DNA of 64,000 nt from Raillietiella orientalis (Eukaryota). The stretch spans positions 1,612,001-1,676,000 of the forward strand of contig JAYWIR010000034.1 in assembly GCA_036172245.1 (NCBI GenBank), written 5' to 3'. Each line of letters begins with the position of its first letter. Within the stretch, counting starts at the first letter, position 1. Shown piece after piece: positions 1,522-59,600 of the stretch. The notes under the pieces were generated by a model, which ran no database searches, had not been told where the DNA came from, and saw only the letters and a program-made list of their open reading frames with translations. A program made the translations under genes and the position numbers.

Positions 1522-2488
1522 GAGTCTTCACGCCACGCCAGGCTCGACCTCACTGGCTGTCGGCGCGTTTCCCCAGCGGCTAATGTTTGCTCCCCCGCGC
1601 CCCGGCCGCGGGAGCCAAGATAAACGCTCTGTGCAAACCGAAAACAGGTGAAGGAATGCAGGTCCCAGCGGAATCTTATCCAAATGTCGCCTTGCTGTTT
1701 AGAACCTCTCCCTGTGGATTACTGACTCCAAGGATGACTTTGGAATTGCACCGCTTGCGTCTTTTTGTATTATGTGGTCCGCTGTGACGAGAGGAAAACA
1801 ACACGCTCATTGCACGTCATTTCTACCGTCACTTTCTGTATTCTCCTATTGCCTTGAAACCATCCGTGTATATTCCAGTTTCCTAGGAACACTGCAGGTC
1901 TCCAAGACCGGTTCGATTTATCTACTCTACAGCAGCAGTTTAAAAATTAACATTTTCCGATTGCAATGAACAACTTCAGTTATGTAGTTTACAGAGCAGA
2001 GAGTCAACGAAAATAATCAAATTACGTTGCAATCTTTGGGATGTCAATGAATCTCAAATGCATGACAAAACTGAAAATGTTGCAACTGAAACAGTATTAC
2101 GATAAATTCGAAAAACAGGAAAGAAAAAAAACAAATCCCAGAAGTTCAACTGGTCTGCTGTATTCAGAATCCAAAACGATCATCTACTGTCAGCATCCAT
2201 CATCTGCTCTTCTTACGGGTTACCAAGCACGAGTTATAATTTGTAGACTAAAATTCAAGCGACAGATGAAATTACAATGAAGTGAATATCTCCGCCGTCT
2301 AAATCCACGACTGAAAGCTTACGAAATGGTCAATTTACCGGAAGATTTTCGAGATATTACTAGAACACTTTTTGGTTGACACCTTCCATCATTATAAGCT
2401 GTTTCCGTGCTTTCAATCTCTCTCTTCGCGATTGCTTTTCGGAGTCTGCTGCTGCATCAGTTACGTCAAACAGTTTGGAAGTGTCGAT

Positions 2489-7510: not shown

Positions 7511-8877
7511 ATGGATGAGGATTTAGATTCCAGTTTTCTTCAAAAGTTTAACTGCCTTGGAACAACTGATAAAGAAGTACTGGTTTCAGAGTTGCAGAAA
7601 CTCCTCAATAACCAACTCAGTTATACAGCAGCAACCTTTTTTCTAGACATGAATAATTGGTATTATTTTTTTGTCTTGTGTTTAGATATTAAGTGGTTGT
7701 TGCACAGTTTGATTCCAAGAGTTTAGGAAAATGGTTGACTTGATTTGTGTCATGTGAATGATTTTGAAAGTATTTTTCTGTTCAGTATGGTACTGAACAG
7801 ACCTAAATCTAAAGTAGCATTGCATGGTGCAAAAGCATTTCTGTTAAGGAAAAAAGAATGTTGTAGATAGAATTTTGATTCAAAATTATCAAATAGCCAA
7901 ATGAATAGTGAGATTGCACTTGATGTCTGATTAATGAATCATGTAAGGAAGAGCTTTCTTTTCAAAATCCATTAAAATATCTTAAAAGTGTAATGAAAAA
8001 GAGAAGCTAATGCAAATTTATGAAACAGAATGAATGCTGAGTATTACTGTTTTTTTTTTATTATTATTAATGATTGATTTAATGGATAACTAATGATTTA
8101 AAAAAAAAATTATTGAAGTTCCAAAGATCCGAGAGGAATGAAAATGAATTTAGTAAGTAACATGCCTTAGGTAGTTTTTGCATAACGGAAAATCCGATTA
8201 ATAATTCGACTGTGTTGCTTTGTGTGTAACATTGGTGCTGTAAAGTGCTCAATGGTGAGGTATATGACTAACATGTGATTTTATAAAGGAATTTACAAGC
8301 TGCAGCATGTTCTTACTTTGACTATGAATGCCCCAAGTTGCCATCAGTTGCACTTATCAAAGACGTTACAATAGGTGAGGGGGAAGAGATTCCTCCTTGT
8401 ACTAGGTATGTATCACAAGGTCCTTGATTGCCTTAACATGTTGATAGGTTTATAAAAACATGGCAGATAAGAAATGATGGTGAGGAGCAATGGCCCCCAG
8501 GTTGTTGCTTGAAATTTATTGGTGGCTGTCAGATGACTTTACAAGATAGAGTGATGGTAGATGCACTATACCCAGGATGTGTAGCCAACATTAGTATTGA
8601 GATGACATCTCCACCTGTAGAGGGTGTATACCATGGAAAATGGAAAATGTCCACACCTACAGGCACTTTATTTGGAGGTCAGTTTACATCTGTGCACAGT
8701 GTGTTTATCTCTTCAAAATTGACAGCAGACATTATTTGGGTGATCATAATGGTGAGCAATAATGGTACAACAGCATTGGCACAACAGCTATCTGAGTTCA
8801 AAGACCTTGGATCATCTATCACTTCCCCACAGACAGAACTTAATCCTTTTTCAGTACCCAATAACAATCTGTTATGA
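7511..8877 (+). CDS. ILRUN: ILRUN / C6orf106 homolog (UBA-like + NBR1-FW domain), 4 exons, about 214 aa
   Basis: Exons 7511-7659, 8289-8405, 8448-8677, 8729-8877 (645 nt, all GT-AG, frame-consistent). Spliced protein contains LLQKF-like FLQKFNCLGTTDKEVL, FFLDMNNWNLQAA, DVTIGEGEEIPP, FIKTWQIRNDGEEQWPPG, YHGKWKM and GDIIWVI, all characteristic of C6orf106/ILRUN. Confidence 0.93.
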
Positions 8878-9053
8878 TGCAGTATGTGAATTGAAATACC
8901 CTCAAGCTAAGTCAGCTAGGCTATGCTCTGTTTGCAGCATCTACAAGTTGAGACAACTATGCAGGTTGCTGCACCAAACCAAATTCTATATGCTTGACAT
9001 ATTAAATGTGTGAAATGGAATTTGTATTCAAACCATGTCTTGATGTGCTCAAT

Positions 9054-10059
<1,006 letters not shown>

Positions 10060-10644
10060 GTTTTGGTACGTGTAAAAACTTTCCTAAATTATTTGCTGTT
10101 GTTTTATTTATGATGCCTAAATTGTGAGGCAGATGACATCGATAATTCACTTGCTGATTGCATCCTACTTTAAGTTTTGTGCATTAATATTTTCGTGATA
10201 CAATCCGCAATGTGATGTGTTTTCTACCAGATTAGGAAGTAAAAAACGCACTTTGCAACTCACTACCCCGAAAATTTTCAATTATCAGCTCACTACATAA
10301 TTTTAAGGTCACACTGCCTAATTTATTGCCTACCGCTCACACGTTCTTTTTGTATTGACGTACAGTCAATACAAAAAGAACTCAGAATGATTGAAAAATA
10401 GGGTACCGCATTAATTGAGAACTCTGAAGGCATGCAAACTTTCAACGGACATGTAACAAGCGAGAGAATTTTCAAGCTGATTTGTTTAGCATACACATTT
10501 CTTCCGACATGCACTGTTTGAACGCTTTCCAAGTCACTTTCAAACCATCCGCTCAGCGCAGGTCATGGCGGCCCCACACTCTGCTCCTTTTTCCTAAAGC
10601 AGCGCTTTCCATCCAACGAAGAAATCGAAAAGGCAGAAATCCAA

Positions 10645-14107: not shown

Positions 14108-14143
14108 CACCATTCTCACTAGAATCGACAAGTGAGAATGGTG
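14108..14143. repeat. Perfect 13-bp inverted repeat with a 10-nt loop
   Basis: CACCATTCTCACT-agaatcgaca-AGTGAGAATGGTG. Confidence 0.85.
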
Positions 14144-15758
14144 AACCCGCATGAACCATCCGACTAATAGAAAAAGAATCTATTTTGCATTTTCTCTAAA
14201 TTAAAAATACACACCATTCGGAGATCCAGCAAACAAAGAGGAAACCTTACTCCAGAAGAATGCAATAAGCAATGCGAAAACGTTACTCTTCGATAAGAGA
14301 CAAATCTTTATTCAGATGTGTAAAACCGAAAAAAATAAAGGCAATGTGGGCTATTACCAATAATGGCGAAAGTATCCTCGGCGATAATCTTAGCACTCCA
14401 AGATGCACACCTCTCCTATCTTTCATCATGCTGCCCAGGATGGATGGAACGCTACCGCAAAATAAGGTTTCACATTTTAGCTGAGTGAAGCAGCAGAGTA
14501 TTTCACGATAAACTTTAAGAATGAACTGACCACGAAAAAAGAGAACCGGGAAAAGTATCATCACCTCCCGAAATAGTTCTATGTGCAAAACAGTTTTATT
14601 AACGAGCACATCTTTTTGCTATTTAGGGGGAAAAGGATAGAAGAATATATTTAAAATAGAATATTTATCACAAGGTATTTCATATAGAAAGAATAGGGTG
14701 TAGACTTGGAATAAAAAACTAATGATTTGTTTTTCGTAGGAATGCTGTCTTCAGTCAGTTTTCTGAACCTTCCAGAAGTACCGACAGGAACATGGTAATA
14801 CTGGAATTTTTTTTTTTTCTCTAGCAAAGCTTGTTACTGTATGCATACGCGTAATCTTGGGAACTAACCTTTGAAATGAGTTTATCCACCAAAGATAAAA
14901 CCGAATCTGATGACTGTATCTATGATTTGTTGTTTGTCATACCAATCTTGGCACGATACGATGTTCAGGTTATTGGGTTCAGTAAACTGACAAAGGTAAA
15001 ATAAAAACATGATGATCACATAAAGCACGTAAAACTAAGGTATCTTGGGTACTTATGAAGGATTTGCTGGTGCTATCCGTTTTTATGAGAGCAAAAATTA
15101 ATTGGAAAATAATTCATAGCGTATTTAATCAGTTTTTATGAGTTGTTTAGGTGACGCGTCAAGCAGAATACGCTAACTGAAAAGCCGTGATCACTTTAAA
15201 CGTAATTTAATTTTAAAGACTGAATCATTGCTAGCTTTATTCCCTACAAAGCTCGAAAAACGCGCACCAAAAGTTAAACAGATTAAAGAAAAGTAACCCT
15301 CTATATCCTCAACTTCAAATACAGGCACATACTTCGCAGCAAGGAGCCAAACTGAAAAATTCTCCACCTAAGACATTCAAACCATTATACAGTGAAGCAA
15401 AAGGATCCTGCCTGGGACAAGGTGATTTGTGTTTGACACAAATAAAAAAAAGAGTTTCAAAAATAGGAAGATCCAAACAGTTACCGAAGCCTTTAGCACC
15501 TAATGTACAAAAATTTATTTATATCACTGCACAACCTATTTGCAGGGCAATAATAAGGCAAAAACGACTGCTCGGAATTTTTGGTTTGGCACAAAAGGCA
15601 AGCCATCGGAAACGTCAGGAGAAGGAAGAATTTGATCGAAAAACTCGAAAAAGAGAAACGCTGACAATTTCTGTCTGTACCATCCACCAAAGTCCTTCCT
15701 GAAACAAGCTCAGTAGACCATGAATGATTTCGGCCCGTTGGAACGAGAGCATTGCAAA

Positions 15759-17088
15759 ATCAAGGCGGAGAAGGGAAAAGGACCGCGCAGGTGAAACATA
15801 GGCTGTGGGTGCTGAGGTTCGGATGCATGAGGCAAACGAATGGACTCGGGTACGTACGGTGGGACATCATGCCGGGCCGGAGCACCAGCATTCCAACGAA
15901 AGAGTGTTTGTGAGGTCGGACACGTGCGCTGTTGCGACCCCCTCGCAGCCCGGACAGCAGCGGCTGGCCAGTTGCTTTCGCTTAGAGCGTCCTCCGCCTC
16001 TCGTCATGCGTGTCCCCACACCAATCCTCTTTCTTTTCCAGCCTCTCTTCAGCACACTTTCTTTCGCGGGCTAACGGACCGTGCTTCTTCCGCAGGCCTT
16101 TTAGCGCCAGTGCCACCATCTGCATGAAGAGTTGACACCGGTTGCCGAGCAAGAAATGCCCTCATCGTCTCGACCGTGCAGCAGCTGCGCTGCAGGCACC
16201 TCAGCGCTTCGAACGTTCTGGACGATGCGCAGACGTCTTTTCTCGATGGCTCCCCGCACGCAGCCTGCCAGGTCGACAAATCAATCGGACGTAGCTTGAC
16301 GGGTCGGGTGGGAAGATGGGGCAACTGCTCTGCTTGGACTGCCACAGGCAAAGGACGCGCCGCCTCGAGCGAACGCGCCGGGCGGTTGGCGTCGGCGTTC
16401 GGCGCGCTGCTGGCTGCTCCCGTGCCCGTGGAGCGGGGGCCAAGACGCAACGCCCGGAACGACAGCATCCTTCCGCTCGCGTCGTCGTCCTCGTCGTCGG
16501 ATGGCAACGCGTACCCTCCCCCCTCTCCTCCTCTCCGCCCGTCCAGTACGATCACACGTGCGCAACGGGAAGAAAAAAGAAGTGCCGACACCGGTGGCGT
16601 TGCTACGGGGTCGGATGCGCAGAGTGCGATCCTGTGCGAAGATATCAGTCCATCTCGTGTGTGTGTGTGTGTGTGCGTGCGTGCGCGCACGTGCGTCTCG
16701 TCGTCCAGGGAGTTGGGCCCGCAGCAAACGTGCGTGCACTCGTTGCCACCTGGTCTCGTGCCTGACAGAAGAATTTGCGTGTGCCTCAACGAGACCTCCG
16801 TTATTTGGGTTCAATCGCTCGGGTTCCGAAGAAAGGCGGCGACCGGAGCAAGTAAAATGGAGAAAGTACTGCAATTCAGGCGTGTGCCATGCATCGACGG
16901 AAGGGTGTCTGTGTCGGTGGAGGCGCACCTCGGCAGGCGTCCATGCCGAGTTCTCCCTGCAGCCGTAGCCCAGTCGGGACGCCGCCGTGAACACCGGGTG
17001 CAGGGAGAGCCGAGCATCGCCCGTTAGGAAGGAAGACGAGACGGGCGTTCACAACAACTCAGGACTCCTCGGTCGATCTCAGATTGAT
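15759..17088. mobile_element. GC-rich 1330-bp dispersed repeat, copy 1 (unclassified, probably a non-autonomous mobile element)
   Basis: Matches 55352-56689 base for base by eye except the (GT)n length (offset 39593 before the tract, 39601 after). Sharp GC/AT boundaries, ATCAA...TTGAT ends, different flanks, no TSD or poly(A), and no transposase or RT recognised. Confidence 0.8.
16049..16468 (-). CDS. Putative 139-aa ORF carried by repeat copy 1 (PIDLS motif, C-terminal KR-x10-KK NLS-like tail)
   Basis: ATG in the context ggAagATG-like (A at -3); MLSFRALRLG...RPIDLSTWQ...GAKRPAEEARSVSPRKKVC*. No known family recognised, and GC-rich DNA produces long ORFs by chance. Confidence 0.3.
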   Translation of the reverse strand: MLSFRALRLGPRSTGTGAASSAPNADANRPARSLEAARPLPVAVQAEQLPHLPTRPVKLRPIDLSTWQAACGEPSRKDVCASSRTFEALRCLQRSCCTVETMRAFLARQPVSTLHADGGTGAKRPAEEARSVSPRKKVC

Positions 17089-18567
17089 GTTGGCATCTGT
17101 CAGAAGGCTGTTTACTTTACTGATATAAGAACTATTCCGGGACAAATTTCAAGTTTGATTTGCAAAGTTGAATGTATACAACTATATTATTAATGTGTTT
17201 TTTTCTATTTGTCATTCATCACAGATTGTTTTTTCTTACTTGGAACCGTAGCATTTTCTTTGCTTAATATATGATAGTCTAAGTGAGAGGTAAAGTATGT
17301 GAGATATAACTGGCATTTTAGTTGATATAAAGGACATATGCCCATGTTAACAGGAGAGAAAACGTAAACCGCCTTATGTGTAATAGCACAATACGTGAAG
17401 AACTTCATTCGCATTAATGAATTGAAGCTAACCGTTTTCAGTTGCTAATTAAATAATTTAGGATTTTTTTTCTTTGAAGAATGACTGTATTGTTGTGATT
17501 TGCTGAAGTGGAAATCACCCAAAGTGGATTTCTAATATTTTCGAGCTTCTCAGTTATTAAGAAAGTTCCTTGCATTTGATAACTACTTAACTGCCATCAC
17601 AATGTTCAATGTGGTTTTGGGTGGATATCGCGTAGTAACATCAGGATACAAATGTACTCACTCACTGTAAACTTGATAACTTGGTATAGATCCATAGATA
17701 GAATTGTATGCCTTCTTGATGTATACATATTGTTGAGGTTCTTATGTTATTCTTATGTTGTCCCTTTATTACCCAGCCCATTTGGGTAATAAAGCAATTG
17801 TCTAAACTTAATTCGAATTCAGAAAACTAAACCAGTTTTCATCGTGGATGCACTTTTGCACTTAGCATTTGTTTGAGAATTTATATATTTTTCATATTTA
17901 CTGACTTTTAATATTGGTTTCATATAAAAAAAGGAGATAATGTTTTGGAATCTTTGTTTTATTCTCCTTTCTCATCTCGGAGCTTTGCATTCCTGATCGT
18001 ATAGAAACGTCATTTTGTATACGTAAATATTAAGTGCTATGCATATAGACGGGCGTAAGCAATTACACTGATATAATTAAAGTATCTGGCATTTCATTAT
18101 TCCCTTGAAAATTATAAGATTCCAACTAATCTGGTTTCAGCAGCCTATTAACAAATTCAGCAATTGTATTCTGAAGTGCTTCACGGCCTGTTTTAAAATA
18201 AATGTTTCCATGTTTTTATAAGTAGGTGAAAGCCAATGTTTGTTTCTAAACTTATGAAAATCATAATGTGAAGTGTCTTCGCAAGTGTTCATTCTGTAAG
18301 CAAAATGTTTAAACGTTATGGTATGGGAATATCAATTGCAAAAAAGATAAGACCTTGTTCGCTAAACAAGGTACGATTAGTCATTTAACGTGCGAACGGG
18401 AATGTTCAACTAGTTCGAATTACCTTGGAAATGTTGCACGTAATTTAGAATTTCTGTGCAGTACCAATACAGAATTTGGTGTGAGGCACACAAGAAAGCG
18501 TCATCAATGCTTTTAAGTGATAATAAGTTATTTGCTTATGTTTTGCAGATATAATTAGTAAGTAAAT

Positions 18568-19424
18568 ATGTCAGCTGCATCACTAGGGAAACCCTCGGGA
18601 TATTTATCTGATGAAAGTCTGGGAGGTGAGTGAAGTTTCTTTGTGCTTAATAAAGATACGAAAAACTGGTAACCAGCATGCTGTTAAACCGAAATACAAA
18701 AATATTTGCATTGTATAAACCTATAATACTTTCAAAATAAAATTCACTCATCACTGAGAAGTGTGTTTACACTCTTGTTTTAAGAATCATGGGTGGATTT
18801 GAGTTCTCAAGCTTCTGCTTCACATGCACCTGAAAGAATAACCCCAATTAATTTTACAAATGGAGAGTACATCAGATTGCTTAAGGAGGCCCAGACAGAC
18901 AGTAACCAATCTTCCTGTTTAGTTTCATCAGCTTCTTCTTTGCGTAATTCGTGAGTGATTAAATTTGAAAGCATAGTGAATGAAAAATACCTCAGACCTA
19001 AATCACCCCCCAACAGTCCTAACAATGAACTTTGTTGTGAAAATGAAGAAATGAGAGGTATTTACATAAACCGGAGTCAAGGATTTGCTGTCACTGTTGC
19101 TGACTGGAGCAGTCGACCCGATATTTATCCTCCGAAGTAGGTATAAAAGTTATTAGTTAAATTACAGGGCATTCCCTGTATTCTCAGGGAATGGAAATTT
19201 CAGCATCCTCCTCCCTTGACCTATGGCATGCAGAAAGATAAAATAGGCAGTGCAAAGTTTTTTTCGAAGCACGTTTTGTATACAGTTATGCTAACTAATC
19301 TTATATCCTTTCTTGTGGGAACAGGGATTGGGTAAGTGCTACTTTAATAACATTAATGGTACAGGTCTTCTCAAGGATTCTCATAAGTCGCCGTGGATCA
19401 ACCATACACTCCAAAATTATATAA
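18568..19424 (+). CDS. BNIP3: BNIP3/NIX-like mitophagy receptor, 5 exons, about 185 aa
   Basis: Exons 18568-18625, 18785-18950, 18996-19136, 19188-19331, 19376-19424 (558 nt). Spliced protein has the LIR ESWVDL, RITP..F.NGEYIRLLKEAQ..SNQSS, SPKSPPNSPN, DWSSRP..PPKEWKFQHP, and a C-terminal TM segment (VLYTVMLTNLISFLVGTGIGILISRRG), closely resembling insect BNIP3. Confidence 0.92.
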
Positions 19425-19477
19425 GGAAAACCATGCATTAAATTTTATATAATTGCATATTAATAAATTGCTCTGCT

Positions 19478-22400
19478 TCACAGAACAGGTTCAGTCTGTT
19501 GCAAGAGCCATTTGTAAGCCTCTTCATCTTGTTCCAGGAGTAATGGAGCTAATGTTTCTCTTATTTCCTTGTGATATGCTACAAGCCATTGGATCTGCAA
19601 AATAATATATAAAACTAGTTTATAGTTTATAGCACAAGCTTACTTCTTGAGGTGTCATCAACTCTGTAGCAATCATTTTTTTCTGAATAGGCACCAATGT
19701 AATAGTTTTAAATGTAAGGAATTGTGTATTATGATGTTGATAGGCTGTGTTAGCAGGAACTGCCACCATCACATTTTCAATACGGATCCCAAATTTCCCA
19801 TCCTCATAATAACCAGGTTCTAAAATTAATTTTTTTCTATACCCAAGCATTCAAAAATATCACTGCTAGCACGTGACAAAATGAAACTGCAATGAGTCTA
19901 CTTCTTTGTATTTTAAATAACAGTTGTGTTACGATGTTTTTGTGTTAACTTCAGACTTACCTCAAATATTTCTCACACTTCTGCCAAACTGAAACACTTT
20001 TGGTTTTACAGTATACTAAATTAGATTTGTTAATCTAAACTTTCATTTGGAAACTAGATGCTAAAGGTTTACATATATTAACTCACCATCCGAGAAAACC
20101 ATATTAGCTTCAATTCCTGGATCAGTAAGGCATAGTCTCCAGCTAATGCGTACAGGTTCTTCATGAACATTAAGATAATGCCCTACACCATGGCTTGTGC
20201 CATGCATGTAATCCAGACCTAAATGCCAAAGGGATCTACGAGCAAAAGCATCCAGTCGATGTCCCTGAACTTTGGCAGGAAATGTTGTTGTTGCAAGAGC
20301 AATAACTCCCTGCAACACAGATGTGAAACATTGGCGCTCAAAAGCAGTAGGCTCCCCTAAGTGAATGGTTCTTGTGATGTCAGTGGTTCCATTACTGTGA
20401 TTCTTCTGTAATACTAGTGATAAAGACTCCACTTGTTTTACCGGTATTGTCCTCCTGAATCAACTAGGTATAATTCCTGGAGTGTGATCTGACGATCTGT
20501 GGAAAAGGTGGGCTTGTAATGAATGATGGATGCATTACCACCAACTGCAGATATTGTTTCAAAGCTTGGCCCCACATACCCAGGTTGCAATCTGCAAGGA
20601 ACCTACAGCAGTCAAAAAAAAGATCACTCACCTACGATATTCTTCTAATTTTTTAGCTCCTGATACTTCTGTAACACATTCATTGGGAACAGTCCGTTCT
20701 AACCAAGCCAGGTAACGTACTACTGCCACTGCATCATGGATGTGACACAACTGCATCCCTAAATCCTCATAAGAATAAATATTTTTGGTTTAAAGACTTC
20801 TACCTTGGATTTCAACAGGATTTTTAATAGCTTTCATTAACTGAACAGGGCTTTCAGAAGTAAAGATGCTTCCTGGTGGAACCAAACTATGCAACCACTG
20901 ACTACTGTTCTCACTAATCCAGAAACGATCATCACTATTCTTTGCCTACAAGAAAATAAAGGGCTTTTGCTTAGAATCTGAATAAATAACTGTTTGCTGA
21001 AGATAATTTGCAATGTCATCATATGGTTTCACAGTCACAACAGGGCATTCTGGATCAGCAGGACATTGCAAATGTTGACATGCAGCTGGAGTTAATTTCT
21101 TTTCATTTACAAATAAGAAAACAGCTGATGAGGTTATAGTCACATAAGCAAAGAACACTGGATTATACAAAACGTCGGCTCCTCGTAAATTGAGCAACCC
21201 TACACACATTCAGATGCAATACTATTAAAACACACACGCACAAAAAAACTCACAGGCAATTTCATCTAAGGCAGATAGCAATAACACAGTTACATTATTC
21301 TGTTTCATAACTGCATGAACTGCTGCTACTTTGCTACTCCAGGTTCGACCTATTTCCCAAAATTACTTGCTGGTTTGAAGTCTTGTTCTTACCTGTTAGT
21401 TCTGTGCCCAAAGGAAAAATAGTTGCAAATGGTGCACCAGGTCTATCAGACCATATAAGATCAATAAGATTCTGAGGTATAGCTACAAGTCTTTTCCCAT
21501 TACATGCCAGATGTGTGCTAACTGTTTTCCACCAACTAGCTTTGACTAACATAGGGTCTACGCCCACACAGGAACCAGCAGGGAGGTTCTTGCCAAGCCA
21601 GGACTCTATGGTGGGGGTCTCTGGTTTACCTATGTGTATGATAATAAATGACAATTTAAGACATAAAAGCAAAAAGTTTCTTTTCATTCAAAAGGCTAAC
21701 AAATGCCAAAATCCAAAATTTAAAACAAATACTTGACCATCAGAAGTTATTGCTTCCCCTAATTCCTGCCCATTCAATTAGCCCTTCGATTTTCGGATTT
21801 CAAATGAATATATGCCAGTAACTAGTAATTTCATCAAAATTTCATCAATGTTATTGACAAAGGTAAGTGACTGAGCACAAACAAGCTCTTACAGGGTAAA
21901 GTCTGCTTTAACCAACATTGGGATTAAATGTGCAGAAACAGATGAAAACTCCTTTGTGGAAGCTCTTATGAACAAGAGTTTCCACATACGTATTTGTTGT
22001 TCATATAAAACATAAGTAGAAACCAAAGTGAACTTTTAGGAGGATTGAAACTCCATTACTACATGGCAAAATTTTTCTAAACTTTGTACTTCTTCAAAAA
22101 ATGCTTCTGTGCTTTATACCTACTGCAAACCTTGACATTTAAAATAACCATTACCATGTGAAAGGCTTCAGTTTACATTTTCAACATGGACATTCAACAA
22201 AATGAAATTTATTTTTCAATGAACTTTTTTTGATGCAAGGACTTTTAACTGAATTGTGCTGCACCAGTGTCTAAGTACTCTCTAATCTTCATGGATGATG
22301 CAAATGCAAGAACAAACACTGTGTTGGTTTTCAAAATTTCAGGTTAAGTTTTCCCTTTAGAATGCTAAAAATTTTCAAGAACTTTCAATTTGAAAGAATA

Positions 22401-35815: not shown

Positions 35816-38800
35816 TCATTTCCACCAAGCATTGCGAAACCACTGCTTGCATTGTGTTTTCGATGTCAGTATGGGGTTTTTGCTGAGGACTGCTTGTTTC
35901 TTCATGTAATTATCTGGTTGATAGACAGATGCTTGCATTTGACTAGAGGAACTCAACCTCTGGTTAACGGCTGATTGGTCCATTTGAAGGGATGCCATGG
36001 AAGGAAGCAAGGAAGATTTACCGTATTCGTTTTGATTATTTTGGGATAAGCATTCAATAACGGCAACATTCGGATCGCAGACTGGCGGAGTTCGCTTTCC
36101 ATGGAAAACGCCTTCTTTATTTTCGGATTGATAAACACTGTGTGGCAGACTGTTCCGAGCAACATCCATTGAGAGAGCATCTTCCTGACGCATTTTTCGC
36201 AAAGTACTTTCTAATATACGTGTACGCGCCATGGTCCCTTCTAGCTCGATGTTTTTCATTTGAAGCTAGTACAGTTTCTATCGTGACATGAGATTTGAGA
36301 GCGAACGTACCTGTATACGCAGATCTTCAATTTGCTCTCGAAAGTCATCTACCTGGGAGTTCCATTCCTTTTTAATGGTTTCCAACTGGGAATTTTTGGT
36401 GTCCAGATTGATGCGGAGTCTCTGCATTTCACTGTTAAGCACCTAGAAAAGGGACCTGGCATTGTATTTATTGGTACACTAACAAAGCATTCGACATAAA
36501 ATCTCCGTAAGAACAAGTACACTAGTAAAGGGACAAAATCTCCATCGAAACAAAAATCCACAGCTTTGATACACTTTGTTTGGCTGAAATATACGTGTGT
36601 GTATATACACATACATATGTTATATTTATCTCCTTCATCTTATATATATATATATATATATATAAGATAAACGAAAAGGTGAAATACTTCTTATTTTAAT
36701 CTTCCTATTTTATAACTGCTTATTTTAATTTTCAAACCTATTACCGATTATTAAGCTGACAAAGACACATTCATTCGAAAAGAGAGAGTTGTGCGGCGGC
36801 GGCAAAAATCAAGAACTTTGCAATGCCCACACAATAAGATGCCCTTTTATTAAAAGACGTGCATGCAGCAGCAATTTTCTCATATAAAGATCATGAAACT
36901 TATGGGCTTCCGCCATGGCTGGAAGCTTTGAAGATACGTTCCCATTTCTTTCAGGTGAAGAGACATGAATGATGATTATTTGTATTTTCCATCCACTCAC
37001 GAGGAATTCCAATTCTTTCGAAAGTCATCGGAAGGAAGGCACAGTGCACACAAGTACAACAAAGCAAGTACGACAAACTCCAGTTACAACGAGTTCGTAT
37101 CTTACTTTTCCGAAGAGCTGCACGAAAGAGAAATGATCCCTCCATAACATTTCCACACGGTTTGGGAAGCTGGGATGCTGTCACTCGAAAGGAAGGACGA
37201 ACGGTGGCGTTTATCAATCAGTAAAATAAATAAAGCAAATTACGAATTCATCAACGCTCTATTATAAATGAGACAACTGCAAGTGGTCTTCATGAGAAGG
37301 CACGGCATTCTTGGAACTTGAGCAACACTGTTCACTTATGAAGGGAGATTACTGGGAGAGAAGTGCTCCTCGTACAAGAAGAGGCAATCCAAAACGCCCA
37401 AACAACGGCAACCTTGCGCGTCAACACCACATGGCGGTCATCAAGCGCATGACAAGGTTTGCGGGTAGGCTCTTTACGGGCTTGGAGACCAACCAAATCC
37501 TACGCACTCTCCTGTTTGTTTTCAGCCGGAACAACCGTCTTTACTGCGACGCATTTCGATGGCGACCAACGGACCAAACCGAAATTCGGGCACACTGTCA
37601 AGAGACCTTCGAGAAACCTAGAAAGCGATTCCTCCCTCGGTAAATCAATGCAATACTTTGCCCATCATGGTACTAAACGAGCTGTTGTTTACTTATGTTT
37701 CTTTCTTTCTTCTTCCAACATGAACTAGTTTTTCCACGAGCCTTAGTTGATAAAAAACGCGCCTGCAAAAAAGTTTTCGAGAATCTAAATGCTGAAATCT
37801 GCCTACACGACGAAGGACAGATTTCAGGACGCGAAAAGAGTACCTGCGAAAGCAACTGTAACGGGGCTCTGACAAAACAAAGAGTGTACTAGAGTGCATT
37901 TCCTGACAAAACCTTCGGGACACCTGAGCTGCCCATTTCCTATTGCTTCTACGAAGCACGTTTCTAAATTGCTTCTAAAACCGCTTTCTTTGTCAACCTG
38001 CTGCACAGATCACCGAGTGGATCCAATCCTTATGGTGGGAACGGGATAGCAAAACCAGGAACGCAAAGATGGCTGTTTTCAAGGAAGACTGATATGAAGA
38101 ACTGAAGAACGCTGATTCCTGCGTCCGTTCCTTGTTTTCCCCACAGACGAGCACCAAACGTGTGGCTTTCGAACAGCCACAGCCCACCACTGGCCACAAA
38201 TACATTCGTCAGGACGATGAGCAAACGCAGGACGAACGGTCTCACGCGAACAAGGAACACATCTGGATCGACTAGAACACGTGACCTTTCTACACGGCCC
38301 CCGACTGCGAGACGCCCAAACTGAGGAGTACTGTTTATTCGACGGCTTTCGCAAGTGTACAATAACCACAACTGTGCAAAAAAATCATCTCATCAACAAA
38401 CGAGTGGCAGGAACACATCACGAACATCACGTGGAGATCTTCAGAAATGTTCCCAAATTACAAAAGTCAATCGATGGGTTCCGTTTCTACTTTCCCTATT
38501 TCTATCGTAGCAAACAGCGAGTGTGGGATGTTTGCTACGATAAATATGTAAGTCACTTTGAAAACAAACATTTTTTTAAAAAATTCCATGGCCATCCTTG
38601 GCGTAATGGAAAGTGGACTTTCGCTACTTCACAATCAAAAATAATGATATGGTACTCTAATTACCGAGAAATCAGTAAATGCAATCTGTAATTTGAAAGC
38701 ATTTATCTTTAAATTACATCATTCAACGTCAGATTTCCAAAGGACATATGAAACCTTCAGAAAGATGCTTTTTTTCTTCGCTTTTTTCTTTTTTTAAAAA

Positions 38801-54400: not shown

Positions 54401-55351
54401 ATCATTTTATTTAAAAAATCATTTCTTCTATAAGCAAATTAAAAAGAATTTAAGAAGGAAAATTTGGCAAGACCGTAGCAATCAAATCGAAGCAAGTTAA
54501 TAAGGGCTGGAAATTATCTTTCAAAACATCACTTGGAGAACTTTCGATTCCCCTTACAGAAAAAACTTTTTCCTTGTAAAGGTTATGTCAAATGCAAATC
54601 ATGTTAGCACCAGTGAAAATGCCTGAGTGTGATTATCATAGTAGCAAATCCAATTTACATGTTTAACTAAACATACTGACTTGTCAAATACCGAATTTGC
54701 TATTTCTGCAAAAGAAAGGTTGACATGTACTTTCCACGTGATGTGATATGAGGGCTGCAGGTAGTCGACAAATGTTAGTTGACGGAGGAAGTTTCTGTAA
54801 TATGTAAGCCTTAGAGGAACAGATCAGTACAACTTTCATTTATTGTAATGCAGAATTTATGAAAGATCTTGGAGATTGGCAAAGCACTGAGGAAACCGCA
54901 TACGTTGAAAAAACACTAATACTAGGGACCGGTGTATGTAGAGACCCTGAATGAAAAGTAGTTGTCTGACTATGCAATATATTGGGTTTATTTTTACACT
55001 CTCTCAATAAATGATAAAAATACAAAACTTTTGCAAAAGCAATAATTAAAATACTGAGTAGGGGATTCTCCTCTCCCGTTTGCCAAGTGATCATGTACTT
55101 TCTTCGATCGAAAGTATTCTACTATCAATAATCATTCATGGAATCACCCTTTGAACTTTAAGGAAATTTTGCTGTCTGAATGTTGAAGCACGCTCAGAGC
55201 TCTTTGAGAATTCACGATCGAGACTGGAGAAGGGCATAACAAAATAAGAATGACCAACAAAAAGAATGCTGTTGTTTCAGATTGCAAATTGTAAGAGAAA
55301 AAAATCCATTCTTGCAATTGTTACGATGGCTAGCTTCCAAGAAACAAATAA

Positions 55352-56249
55352 ATCAAGGCGGAGAAGGGAAAAGGACCGCGCAGGTGAAACATAGGCTGTG
55401 GGTGCTGAGGTTCGGATGCATGAGGCAAACGAATGGACTCGGGTACGTACGGTGGGACATCATGCCGGGCCGGAGCACCAGCATTCCAACGAAAGAGTGT
55501 TTGTGAGGTCGGACACGTGCGCTGTTGCGACCCCCTCGCAGCCCGGACAGCAGCGGCTGGCCAGTTGCTTTCGCTTAGAGCGTCCTCCGCCTCTCGTCAT
55601 GCGTGTCCCCACACCAATCCTCTTTCTTTTCCAGCCTCTCTTCAGCACACTTTCTTTCGCGGGCTAACGGACCGTGCTTCTTCCGCAGGCCTTTTAGCGC
55701 CAGTGCCACCATCTGCATGAAGAGTTGACACCGGTTGCCGAGCAAGAAATGCCCTCATCGTCTCGACCGTGCAGCAGCTGCGCTGCAGGCACCTCAGCGC
55801 TTCGAACGTTCTGGACGATGCGCAGACGTCTTTTCTCGATGGCTCCCCGCACGCAGCCTGCCAGGTCGACAAATCAATCGGACGTAGCTTGACGGGTCGG
55901 GTGGGAAGATGGGGCAACTGCTCTGCTTGGACTGCCACAGGCAAAGGACGCGCCGCCTCGAGCGAACGCGCCGGGCGGTTGGCGTCGGCGTTCGGCGCGC
56001 TGCTGGCTGCTCCCGTGCCCGTGGAGCGGGGGCCAAGACGCAACGCCCGGAACGACAGCATCCTTCCGCTCGCGTCGTCGTCCTCGTCGTCGGATGGCAA
56101 CGCGTACCCTCCCCCCTCTCCTCCTCTCCGCCCGTCCAGTACGATCACACGTGCGCAACGGGAAGAAAAAAGAAGTGCCGACACCGGTGGCGTTGCTACG
56201 GGGTCGGATGCGCAGAGTGCGATCCTGTGCGAAGATATCAGTCCATCTC

Positions 56250-56280
<31 letters not shown>

Positions 56281-56689
56281 CGTGCGCGCACGTGCGTCTC
56301 GTCGTCCAGGGAGTTGGGCCCGCAGCAAACGTGCGTGCACTCGTTGCCACCTGGTCTCGTGCCTGACAGAAGAATTTGCGTGTGCCTCAACGAGACCTCC
56401 GTTATTTGGGTTCAATCGCTCGGGTTCCGAAGAAAGGCGGCGACCGGAGCAAGTAAAATGGAGAAAGTACTGCAATTCAGGCGTGTGCCATGCATCGACG
56501 GAAGGGTGTCTGTGTCGGTGGAGGCGCACCTCGGCAGGCGTCCATGCCGAGTTCTCCCTGCAGCCGTAGCCCAGTCGGGACGCCGCCGTGAACACCGGGT
56601 GCAGGGAGAGCCGAGCATCGCCCGTTAGGAAGGAAGACGAGACGGGCGTTCACAACAACTCAGGACTCCTCGGTCGATCTCAGATTGAT
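55352..56689. mobile_element. GC-rich 1338-bp dispersed repeat, copy 2
   Basis: Near-identical to 15759-17088, same orientation, with 4 extra GT units in the microsatellite. Confidence 0.8.
55642..56061 (-). CDS. Putative 139-aa ORF carried by repeat copy 2 (identical to copy 1)
   Basis: Same sequence as 16049-16468. In this copy the frame stays open upstream through the (GT)n tract to 56595. Confidence 0.3.
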   Translation of the reverse strand: MLSFRALRLGPRSTGTGAASSAPNADANRPARSLEAARPLPVAVQAEQLPHLPTRPVKLRPIDLSTWQAACGEPSRKDVCASSRTFEALRCLQRSCCTVETMRAFLARQPVSTLHADGGTGAKRPAEEARSVSPRKKVC

Positions 56690-59600
56690 TCCAACATCAG
56701 TCTGAGATCAGAAGAAGATGACTTCGGTTTGTTGATGAGCGAAGTACTAGAAAAGCACCAAGAGATCTATTGTGCATTCGGTAACCTGTAGTGATGTAGC
56801 ATGTTTGAAAAACGAAATAAGGAAGCTGAAACGAGACTTACCCAGAAAATCGTCTGATGGTTAGGCCATTTGCGATAATACTGGTTAGTTGATACCGTTC
56901 TCCGCGATCTGTCTGTGCCAATTATAATTACTGTGCTTTCAACAAACTTGAGTTATCATTGATTGCCGAAAAGATTCGATTTTATATCAATGGTGTGCAT
57001 GTACATAATGTTCATATTATATTGGAATCGGAAGCAAAAACAAGTGTTTCCATTTATTTCATTACGATTTGTGCAAAAGTTGCTGCTTTTACTGTAGTGA
57101 AGGTGCAGCTATACTCGGCAAGATTTTGGGTACGTATGCAGGTAGGATAGCAACGGGATAATCTGTTCACTCTGTGATGCGTCCCGTTGCCATCGTGAAT
57201 GATTTATCTGATGATAGCAAAGTGTTCCCTAAAAGACAACGAAAAACCAGCGCGTCGCGCCGATTTGGCTCAAATTACAATTAGTCCGGAAGGTGGAGAA
57301 GTAAAAGCAAACGTAAAAGATCGATTGATTCATCGATTTAGGAATGGGACATCACTAGTTTTTTTTTTTTCAATACTCTTACGGACTGAACTGGTGTGTA
57401 TTTGAAACTTTACACAACTGCACGAAAGTGGAAGTGGTTTTGACCTATGGGCACCTGCCACAGGAGCTTAGTGAAATAACCCGACCACTTGGTGAAATGA
57501 ATGAGGGAGTGGTCTACAACTGATCCTTGAAACGAAACGGAAATGTTCTCACAACACGTTGTAAAACATTTCATTTCTTTAAGAAGCTCGGAATGAGAAG
57601 CTGAGATTTCAGAGTAACAAACTGATGACTTGCGTATGACGCTGATACGCTGATTTGTTCAACATGAACCGTTGAAACACATTGCGAGGACAAATCACAC
57701 TTCACTAGCGATAATAAATACTTTGTATCATTCACTCTGACTTCATTCGATAATACTTTGTATACTTTCCCGGAATTGATTCAGAGAAAGCAGCTTCCGA
57801 AAAATCTCAGAAATGTAGTTTTCACAGTTCTCAACATGCGAGCATGTCAAAGAGAGTGCTAAATGGAAGATTTCGGTTAGGATCGTTAAAAGATCGTTTC
57901 AACTCTTATGTGATGTACCGTTCAATTGTTAAATTTCTACATAGGGGTTGCAGTCAATGGAGAGGAAAAAACCGTTTTACTGCATCAGATCAATCACGTG
58001 ATTCTCGATGTAGGTGCTCCGTCGAAAGAAATCCCTGCTCGACGTCGCCCAAGAGAGGACGTGGACAGTTTGTCCGTTTCCAAAGTGCTTTGGTCTGCGA
58101 GCTTGGGTGGGAGCAGTGGTGCCACACAAACGAGAAAGTGGTGGTGGTGGAAAACCTGCTGCTCTCTTAACGGTTCTCGTGCGCAGACTTGGACGGCCTG
58201 CTGCTCGCAAGTGTAAGCAGCACGCGCCTCTGCACGTTTACTTGAAAGCAGGATGGAATGCAGAAAGTGGGAAAGGACTGATGCAAAAAGCCGATTCCCG
58301 ATTCGTGAGCACGAGTACCCGTGAACTGTGCGAGCCCAGTGGAACCCGAAATGGAAAAGAAGAAATGCACACCCTGAAGACAACATGAACTGCACTTGTA
58401 ACACCTTACGTCAGTCAGCAAACTTTCGTTCCTTCACTACTCTGCCATGAGAATCCTTCCTCACTTTTACTTTTAATCCAAACGATAAATGTCGGAGTTG
58501 CGAGAAGATGTGAAAATGTAACCTGCGATATCGTAGTAGGAATGCTTTGTATGATGTTTGAATATGCTGAAAGAGACTGTTTCTCCATAAAAGTTCAATG
58601 AAATTATATCACCGGATTGCTTTTTTTTTTTTTTTTTTCCGATGCCTTCTTTGGAATGACTGCAAATGAACTTGGCTCCGGGAACAGCAGCTCACTATCA
58701 GCTATCACATCAAGCACGTTCAAGCACAAACCCTGCAGTTCCCTTTTTGTCCTTTTCTTCCCCCCTCTCCCCCTCCCCTCCGCACGCTCAAATTGCGTAA
58801 TCATTTCATCCAGTTCCTTAAATATAGTTTCATAAGAAATCAAATCTCGAAAGCAAGCCCACTGCTCTTTTTTCCCCCTTCCCTCAAGTGGTCCACAGTG
58901 ATCGAAATATTTCATGATCTCAGATCGCAGATTCATGAAATCTGAATCCAAAATTGCTAGATCAGATGTGTTTTAAGTTTCGTTTCCATAGGTGCTACTG
59001 GTGAAACAGTTAGTGATGAGCGTTTCATTTAACGAAACCACTGCTTTCGAAAATTTGGCCTCGGCGAAGGCGTCTTTTAATGTCCTCTTCTCCCAAGTAC
59101 ACGGAAAGCTCTGTAGAGAAATGCTTTTATCAAACTCCCCCCTATTTTTTTCTACTTATGGTGGAAGTCTCATGGGCACTACTTGCGAGGAAGACACCAC
59201 CAATATGGCAATCGGATTTCCCCACTGCTGGAGAAGAACCAAAGGTATTTTTGATGAATCTTTTCAAGACAAAACGAAAATGCAATGAAACTAGCTCTAA
59301 AAAAGAAAACTGAAGTGAAAGATGAAAGCGGGACATACGAAGAAATAATGAAAGCATCGATAACTTGAAGCTCGATGCTGATTTGCAAAAAAAAATTTCC
59401 ATGTCTGTAACACGGACGACAGCCTTTCGAAAACGACTCCCCCTGCCATGTCCAGTCCTTTCGAAACATCCACCAAATCACGCTATAAACACGAAAGCCC
59501 TACTTTTCATGTGCCCACGGCATGGACGACCCTGGGCATCTCGAAACGTCTTACCGGAATTCTCTTGCGTTTTGCATCTTCCGCGACTCACGCAATTCGG

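Follow-up and report, generated by a model that had tools for sequence, protein, structure and literature searches.

The four-point model of short-range template switching is reportedly that of Loytynoja and Goldman (2017). Among the described outcomes of such switching is an inverted repeat whose spacer has been inverted as well (type 3-1-2-4 / 1-3-4-2; PMC5453318); in these events an imperfect inverted repeat becomes near-perfect, and a threshold of 14 nt was used there for the reverse-complement piece. Regarding larger events, junctions whose matches are short and imperfect have been described as a mark of replicative repair (PMC6902434), and templated duplications of the MMBIR/FoSTeS type copy unique DNA from nearby, can hold a small inverted insert, and have tracts that end arbitrarily. 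Non-allelic conversion between nearby repeats is known as well (10.1101/135152), and the homogenisation of neighbouring Alu copies is cited in PMC3670932; for human conversion tracts, a mean of 250 nt and, for those detected, a mean of 880 nt have been reported.

As for mobile elements, HLE1 is described with TC at the 5' end, insertion between A and T, CTRR at the 3' end and a hairpin before it (PMC11417382); HLE2 (Helentron) has terminal inverted repeats of 11-18 nt and a T|T target, while Spy has an AAA|TTT target and terminal inverted repeats of at least 9 nt starting with GGANNNNG (both PMC4122938). Cryptons carry a direct repeat of 4-6 nt at both termini, reported as absent in animal Cryptons, and the sites of tyrosine recombinases have arms of 11-13 nt and a spacer of 6-8 nt (PMC3212892). 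Finally, Replitron-1 carries over the downstream flank of its parent and generates variable target duplications (10.1101/2022.12.15.520654).

The locus considered here, a GC-rich block found twice on one contig of Raillietiella orientalis, shares traits with several of these systems. The twin is filed under no transposon family, and the reading preferred, with a probability of roughly 55%, is that it arose by templated copying or ectopic conversion carried out by the host, without a transposase that recognises defined ends.

The block and its two copies

The window, that is the whole stretch of 64 kb that was analysed, lies on contig C34 of a genome assembly of 210 Mb in 491 contigs, in which all match counts are lower bounds. 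Self-BLAST of the window returned a single long repeat, in direct orientation and of 1340 columns, with 0 mismatches and 8 gap columns and a copy-to-copy distance of 39,593 nt (Table 1). This agrees with the preliminary description, which had reported a second copy differing by 8 bp of (GT)n alone, save that the shared identity begins 2 nt further left than the start given there, the common letters being AAATCAAGG.

Regarding its composition, the block has a GC content of 0.614 and a CpG o/e of 1.12, against 0.383 and 0.78 for the remaining window, where the richest other 1300-nt stretch reaches a GC of 0.52. Across the four junctions, with 500 nt taken on either side, GC changes by +0.19, -0.29, +0.23 and -0.21, and steps that large occur at 0.2-0.9% of the 648,000 positions surveyed; a two-state 3-mer model places the change points -26, -8, +7 and -8 nt off the junctions. 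The sharply bounded, GC- and CpG-rich block in an AT-rich background that had first been noted is real, with 61% GC against 32-41% in all four flanks and with edges within 26 nt of the junctions; judged by these change points, both copies look inserted. The 3-mer score per base is 0.199 for the block and 0.202 for the GC-rich domains of the host, and the composition of the block is ordinary for such domains, merely out of place.

The assembly-wide search that had been proposed as a check was run with the entire block and gave 20 matches, of which two are the full copies and the other 18 lie wholly in the GT tract; an exact search of the genome for the terminal 14-mer gave two hits, and each half of the block, taken without the GT tract, gave two candidates at E ≤ 1, both of them the known copies. 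No third copy turned up when the block was compared by local blastn with 879 kb of fetched loci; each left flank occurs once in the genome and, this being the case, no empty-site alleles were found on other contigs. Neither a family nor a donor is visible for the block in these searches of its own genome.

As for a foreign origin, distant blastn gave no plasmid or phage match, and one 20-mer had no match in metagenome contigs and two 20-21-mers none in viral contigs, exact patterns being insensitive. A coding role was also discarded: no Pfam family was found in the ORFs of the element (129 ORFs scanned), the plus-strand frame at 16128-16655 gave 440 candidates and no homologue at E ≤ 1, a 149-aa frame starting with MGQLL had no homologue, and a 335-aa minus-strand frame had no usable Atlas match. 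Rfam gave no match at gathering score, with two weak ones far under the cut-off, and a pyrimidine tract with CAG in the block, which resembles a splice acceptor, is no strong candidate, since 22.5% of 111 GC-matched segments have one equal in strength to the best of the block. In DNA run X1 the four bins over the element were uncovered, as were 8 of 26 other bins, and in RNA run X2 5 of 30 bins were covered, none of them over the element; small shares of the two runs were used, and their coverage is uninformative on the copies or their expression.

Table 1. Coordinates of the twin, of its junctions and neighbouring gene, and of the other local pairs. Plain numbers are positions in the window; prefixed ones are positions in fetched loci.
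Feature	Position	Strand	Remarks
Copy 1 of the identical GC-rich core	15757..17088	+	1332 nt, GC 0.61; probable template copy (direction inferred)
Copy 2 of the identical core	55350..56689	+	1340 nt; probably the one derived or overwritten (direction inferred)
(GT)9 tract of copy 1	16657..16674	+	(GT)13 at 56250-56275 in copy 2; sole core difference
ATCAA	15759..15763	+	complementary to TTGAT at 17084-17088; also 55352-55356 / 56685-56689; apparent 5-nt terminal inverted repeat
GTTGG	15737..15741	+	recurs at 17089-17093; 15 nt off copy 1 left end; possible displaced target duplication, chance about 0.02-0.05
TCCAA	55336..55340	+	recurs at 56690-56694; 9 nt off copy 2 left end; chance about 0.02-0.05
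Imperfect palindrome over copy 1 right junction	17075..17106	+	GATG-TTGG-CATC core; flank of ~18 nt ending TCAGAAG, apparently carried by copy 2
Near-perfect 14-6-14 palindrome over copy 2 right junction	56676..56709	+	z -4.3, 0/200 shuffles
TCAGAAG	56708..56714	+	same as 17100-17106; template-switch return point
BNIP3 gene, spliced	18549..19431	+	Pfam PF06553; four GT..AG joints, RNA run X2; 1.5 kb downstream of copy 1
Local pair, identical core, ragged ends	L087:4501-5292 / L088:8916-9707		
Local pair, identical core, ragged ends	L089:8229-9115 / L090:2160-3046		
Local pair, identical core, ragged ends	L096:779-1099 / 2051-2372		
Local pair, identical core, ragged ends	L086:5834-6369 / L102:1204-1762		
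Twin on contig C29, closest analogue	L085:7661-9867 and L086:7049-9273	inverted	2.2 kb, 68% GC, two copies genome-wide

Copy ends and the right-junction scar

On the left, the two copies have an identical blunt end preceded by a 3-nt AAA microhomology, and no template-switch or filler signal was found at either junction (four-point scores 4 and 9); a templated filler at the left junction of copy 1 was tried and set aside (p about 0.12). Direct repeats that abut the copies do not exceed 3 nt in copy 1 and 4 nt in copy 2, even if the ends are allowed to move by as much as 3 nt, and neither copy has a poly(A) or TG...CA end; the lack of a TSD, of poly(A) and of TG...CA that had been claimed is borne out, as regards TSDs of the ordinary kind. 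Two 5-mers recur on either side of a copy at some distance from its left end (Table 1), and that of copy 2, TCCAA, is probably a chance repeat, the inversion of the spacer described below accounting for its right-hand occurrence. Among random segments, 0.4-1.2% have a 5-nt inverted repeat at their termini through chance alone; it should be noted that the inverted ends, like the displaced 5-mers, were picked out post hoc from many junction features.

On the right, an inversion links the two flanks over a further 16-25 nt, a relation that the preliminary description had missed. In copy 1 the junction is spanned by an imperfect palindrome, and the end of the flank contained in 17075-17106 is likely the true right end of the copied tract. 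In copy 2 the core stops exactly at the edge between arm and spacer of a near-perfect 14-6-14 palindrome; the stretch 56690-56709 matches 17075-17094, read as its reverse complement, in 18 of 20 nt, with the spacer inverted, and the heptamer TCAGAAG then restores the order of copy 1. When copy 1 is taken as the template, the four-point path has a score of 19, which none of 1500 random flanks reaches (maximum 13), and the path in the reverse direction has a score of 10, reached by 22 of 1500.

The junction thus contains both components of a four-point template switch, a reverse-complement piece of at least 14 nt taken from nearby sequence and a return to the original strand. Like the events in PMC5453318, it turns an imperfect inverted repeat into a near-perfect one with an inverted spacer, and its piece of 20 nt is longer than the 14-nt threshold used there; unlike them, it occurs at the end of a 1.3-kb copy, at paralogous sites rather than orthologues, and with 2 mismatches. 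Read from the sequence, this suggests that copy 2 was derived from, or overwritten by, copy 1, together with ~18 extra bases beyond 17088. As for the ends ATCAA...TTGAT that had been proposed for the element, the letters are present in both copies and the right one is probably a switch point instead of a terminus; with the right boundary so placed, neither these ends nor the A|TC...|T reading of them would rest on a terminus.

Palindromes with 14-nt arms are frequent, 41 having been counted in 464 kb. Further short and near-perfect ones occur in unique DNA of the window, at 10343-10381, 14108-14143, 21955-21986 and 38501-38544, and such palindromes are possibly scars of frequent template switching.

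Other local pairs in the genome

A survey of 784 kb, including 120 kb around four prolyl-hydroxylase loci and a further 200 kb of C29, found six pairs of at least 93% identity and at least 200 nt, each within one contig and 1.3-39.6 kb apart, four of them inverted and two direct; pairs across contigs had at most 81% identity. The sample is biased, five of the six pairs touching the deliberately chosen 120 kb; the 664 kb of unselected sequence hold the present pair and one copy of another. In four of the five other pairs an identical core is accompanied by differences piled at the ends: the core covers 763 of 792 nt, 776 of 887 and 242 of 321 (bounds under a uniform spread of 7e-10, 2e-18 and 2e-6), and about 273 of 536. 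All four of these ragged-end pairs touch the 120 kb around the prolyl-4-hydroxylase genes, at a density far above that of unselected sequence.

The fifth pair, on C29, has GAAGA at both ends and a small fold-back at one junction, dismissed as a signal (p about 0.08); it is blunt like the present twin, and BLAST extension may account for the 14 bases that are ragged.

Regarding the 887-nt pair, it belongs to a family that was labelled SINE-like by eye for its tRNA-like start and in which the remaining members are 64-77% alike; the pair represents two old copies locally overwritten to identity, with an identical core and diverged ends a few kb apart as in described non-allelic gene conversion (10.1101/135152, PMC3670932). 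For this reason near-identity does not date an insertion in this genome, and the youth that had been read from the identity of the two copies of the block does not follow, nearby pairs of an old family being open to overwriting over as much as 776 nt. Two SINE-like copies 34.5 kb apart on C34 have 87.5% identity and a longest identical run of 81 nt; being unhomogenised, they argue against a general consensus artefact, and they indicate that overwriting is not universal. GC-biased conversion was not demonstrated in the SINE-like pair by a weak test (215 vs 174 non-independent columns).

The GC excess over the flanks is 0.00, 0.09, 0.10, 0.04, 0.24 and 0.20 for the pairs of 321, 536, 792, 887, 1332 and 2193 nt, respectively, and so rises with pair length. 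A bold and rather unlikely generalisation would be that local twins of non-coding DNA, each with two copies of 0.3-2.2 kb at a distance of 1-40 kb and mutually unrelated, form a recurring class that is not young, in which ectopic conversion keeps overwriting the pairs and GC-biased repair turns them into sharp GC islands, seeding or sustaining the GC mosaic of this genome (30% to 70%). Sharp GC steps fit insertion better than biased conversion, and an equally bold variant, a family-less type of element that hops locally, is possible. If the pattern of twins were genome-wide, the pairs would be natural replicates for ectopic conversion or templated copying as a function of distance, and a test of what drives the GC mosaic; alternatively, they would represent an unrecognised way of moving DNA locally.

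Apart from the pairs, a GC-rich repeat of ~950 nt with a T-rich end is dispersed in the fetched loci (L050:4368-5307, L053:8914-9856, L043:2214-3067, L057:8646-9187); its L050 copy has an apparent flanking direct repeat of about 12-13 nt, and the repeat is probably a SINE-like retroposon.

Origin of the pair and its surroundings

In the pathway that we infer for host copying, a polymerase engaged in replication or repair of site 2 would have taken copy 1, 39.6 kb off on the same chromosome, as its template. Copying would have primed at the 3-nt AAA microhomology on the left and run through the block until the polymerase met the imperfect palindrome at the right edge of copy 1, where a change of strand over ~20 nt would have left the 6-nt spacer inverted and the palindrome perfected; after a return at TC, 5 more bases (AGAAG) would have been copied before site 2 was rejoined. 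The block itself would be host-like DNA of a GC domain that had arrived earlier at site 1. Two versions of the reading are distinguished: a first insertion at site 2 by templated copying is a reasonable possibility that falls short of even odds, and the overwriting of an older related copy at site 2 by ectopic gene conversion is a less likely one. The component events are of known kinds, and on this most likely reading the twin is a structural mutation of an ordinary sort whose junction scar is unusually clean.

Several observations count for host copying: the two-copy state, the four-point path from copy 1 to copy 2, the frequency of palindromes with 14-nt arms, the searches that found neither a mobiliser nor the end signature of any family, the short-range clustering of near-identical pairs together with the local overwriting seen in other pairs, and the 3-mer score of the block, equal to that of host GC-rich domains. 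The two-copy state and the clustering are observed directly, as are the inverted 20 nt and the return sequence. The likeness to MMBIR/FoSTeS duplications (PMC6902434) lies in unique DNA copied from nearby, in short or imperfect junction matches and in a small inverted insert; the tracts described there end arbitrarily, whereas here both ends fall at sharp steps in GC and nothing points to a native context for a donor. As for conversion, the GC-richness of the block recalls that of converted regions relative to their surroundings; the core of 1332 nt is longer than the mean human tracts, and the older homology visible in the twin amounts to 16-25 nt on the right and none on the left.

Other points weigh against host copying. 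A random repair tract should not end near both edges of a GC island, which implies a discrete unit; these tract ends are best explained by a discrete mobile unit, and they keep the element reading alive. Furthermore, no donor was found in a GC-rich domain, the left junction is without a template-switch or filler signal, the survey of pairs is a biased sample whose closest analogue, on C29, is blunt, the templated 20 nt have 2 mismatches while the 1332-nt core has none, and the 5-nt inverted ends (p 0.004-0.012) and the two displaced 5-mers must be chance if the host did the copying.

The strongest competitor, doubtful on balance, is an unclassified non-autonomous mobile element that made a local hop, copy 1 being the first and copy 2 the daughter; the latter would have carried ~18 nt of the parental downstream flank, with a 'fuzzy' right end of rolling-circle type that a template switch scrambled later or simultaneously. 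That both copies look inserted, with the same blunt left end after AAA, favours this view, as does the existence of another blunt, two-copy, GC-rich twin on C29; against it, the block shares no sequence with that twin. The comparison with HLE1 (PMC11417382) is mixed: the lack of a TSD, the 5' TC and the A-T position are alike, A|TCAAGG...TTGA|T being read in both copies and an A|TC start on either strand, although the right boundary is probably not a true end; CTRR is absent, TTGA standing on both strands and the extended end reading CAGAAG; no 3' hairpin was found, the last 45 nt folding with z +1.6 (plus) and -1.7 (minus) and the extended right end of copy 1 folding weakly by itself (z +0.3). 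Dispersed copies and a RepHel partner, of HLE1 or HLE2 type, were not found, the copies being two by counts that are lower bounds. A search of the genome for the Helitron Rep (PF14214) gave none above the cut-off, with two candidates, one of them a sub-threshold match with 2 stops. This match, to Helitron_like_N and located at L101 (G000:C29:451248-451424), is a probable dead Helitron remnant.

The inverted ends of 5 nt and the AAA of the left flank differ from the features of HLE2 (Helentron), and with respect to Spy, the left flank has the AAA but the right flanks of the two copies read TGT and TTC, with inverted ends of 4-5 nt. As for Cryptons, no abutting repeat exceeds 3-4 nt and the displaced 5-mers differ between the copies, animal Cryptons being without terminal repeats; for Crypton or DIRS, no tyrosine recombinase was found as a Pfam match in the ORFs of the element or as PF00589, the family searched for, in the genome. 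Replitron-1 and Replitron-N1 (10.1101/2022.12.15.520654) resemble the twin in a sharp left end and in a right end with parental flank, and Replitron-1 also in its variable target duplications; unlike Replitron-1, the block has no terminal direct repeat and no RG target, and no animals are among the hosts reported in that source. A LINE or SINE retrocopy or a solo LTR is not indicated, with no abutting TSD plus A-rich tail, no TG...CA ends and no RNA family match. The misfit to Helitron that the preliminary description had pointed out is upheld by the end features; as for Crypton, the ends depart from the type with terminal repeats. Its 'very young, possibly active element' is not supported, with two copies in 210 Mb and a search for an autonomous partner in which neither an intact RepHel nor a PF00589 tyrosine recombinase was found. 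The cargo that it proposed would be a conjecture, the block having the 3-mer content of host GC-rich domains and no source locus having been found.

That the pair is an artefact of assembly or polishing, one copy having been placed twice or two diverged copies brought under one consensus, is improbable. Consistent with it are the two runs in which no read or contig covered the element and the 1332 nt free of any substitution, as well as the difference-free cores of several further twins; against it, the GT tract differs between the copies, the left flanks of both are single-copy, the structured 25-nt junction of copy 2 is beyond any simple mis-join, and the SINE-like copies on C34 were left unhomogenised.

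Site-specific integration of tyrosine-recombinase type, beside a target half-site mimicking the element end, is very improbable. It would account for the arm, 6-nt spacer and inverted arm at both right junctions, which fit the arm and spacer lengths of such sites (PMC3212892), and for the 8 of 10 nt shared by both flanks at +7 to +16 (p 0.0008); the left junctions, however, have neither an arm nor an abutting copy of the spacer, the pattern recurs at just one other locus, with 1 mismatch, the genome gave no PF00589 match, and the spacers are inverse complements, an outcome expected of a template switch but not of strand exchange across spacers that match. It is just as improbable that the copies are the duplicated breakpoint ends of a larger rearrangement that moved the 38-kb interval, by a staggered break or a circular intermediate: the flanks of the 322-nt twin on C8 (GC 0.41/0.44 vs 0.60/0.64) fit such a break, but the four flanks of the present twin are all AT-rich and no native left-block-right combination stands out.

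The twin is real and has no visible family, and its junction is explained by a known mutational process; neighbouring near-identical copies are, in this genome, no proof of recent transposition. Being direct repeats, the copies flank 38 kb of genes, and a crossover between them would delete this interval. The twin lies 1.5 kb upstream of BNIP3, which is located between the copies and outside the twin and has introns of 44-159 nt; the other genes between the copies are presumably a Xaa-Pro aminopeptidase, a DLGAP5-like gene and a coiled-coil gene, and we take a gene at 61-64 kb of the window to be adducin-like, all as read from their translations.

For the thymidylate synthase at 9057-9638 the best named matches are from insects, at about 70% identity, with none above 74% among the 120 matches listed, which marks the host as an animal; its last exon is an open frame of 194 codons. 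This minus-strand gene and a plus-strand gene in the 8437-9054 region, presumably ILRUN-like, end less than 200 nt apart. Over 464 kb of C34 (1412001-1876000), GC domains of 30-35% alternate with others of 60-70%. An extreme mosaic is seen both there (L035-L074) and in C29:169001-369000 (L102-L121), with domains of 10-100 kb at ~30% or ~70% and some very sharp edges.

Finally, the only BNIP3 RNA contig of run X2 starts at the splice acceptor (18549 of the window) with 10 loose letters (TACAGTTGAT, then G) that are absent from the window. These leader letters have six matches in the genome, two of which share nine more upstream bases; the match on C450 (L030:811-960, in a stretch of 971 nt; also L029) is followed by a strong donor, GTAAG, and folds into stable hairpins (z -4.6), making this locus a candidate spliced-leader RNA. 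Against the candidate, it rests on one contig, no U-rich Sm site was seen, the six matches compare with four in a control, and the two hits of a metagenome scan were both internal and unrelated. By eye, the right end of the block resembles the junction of this candidate leader RNA.
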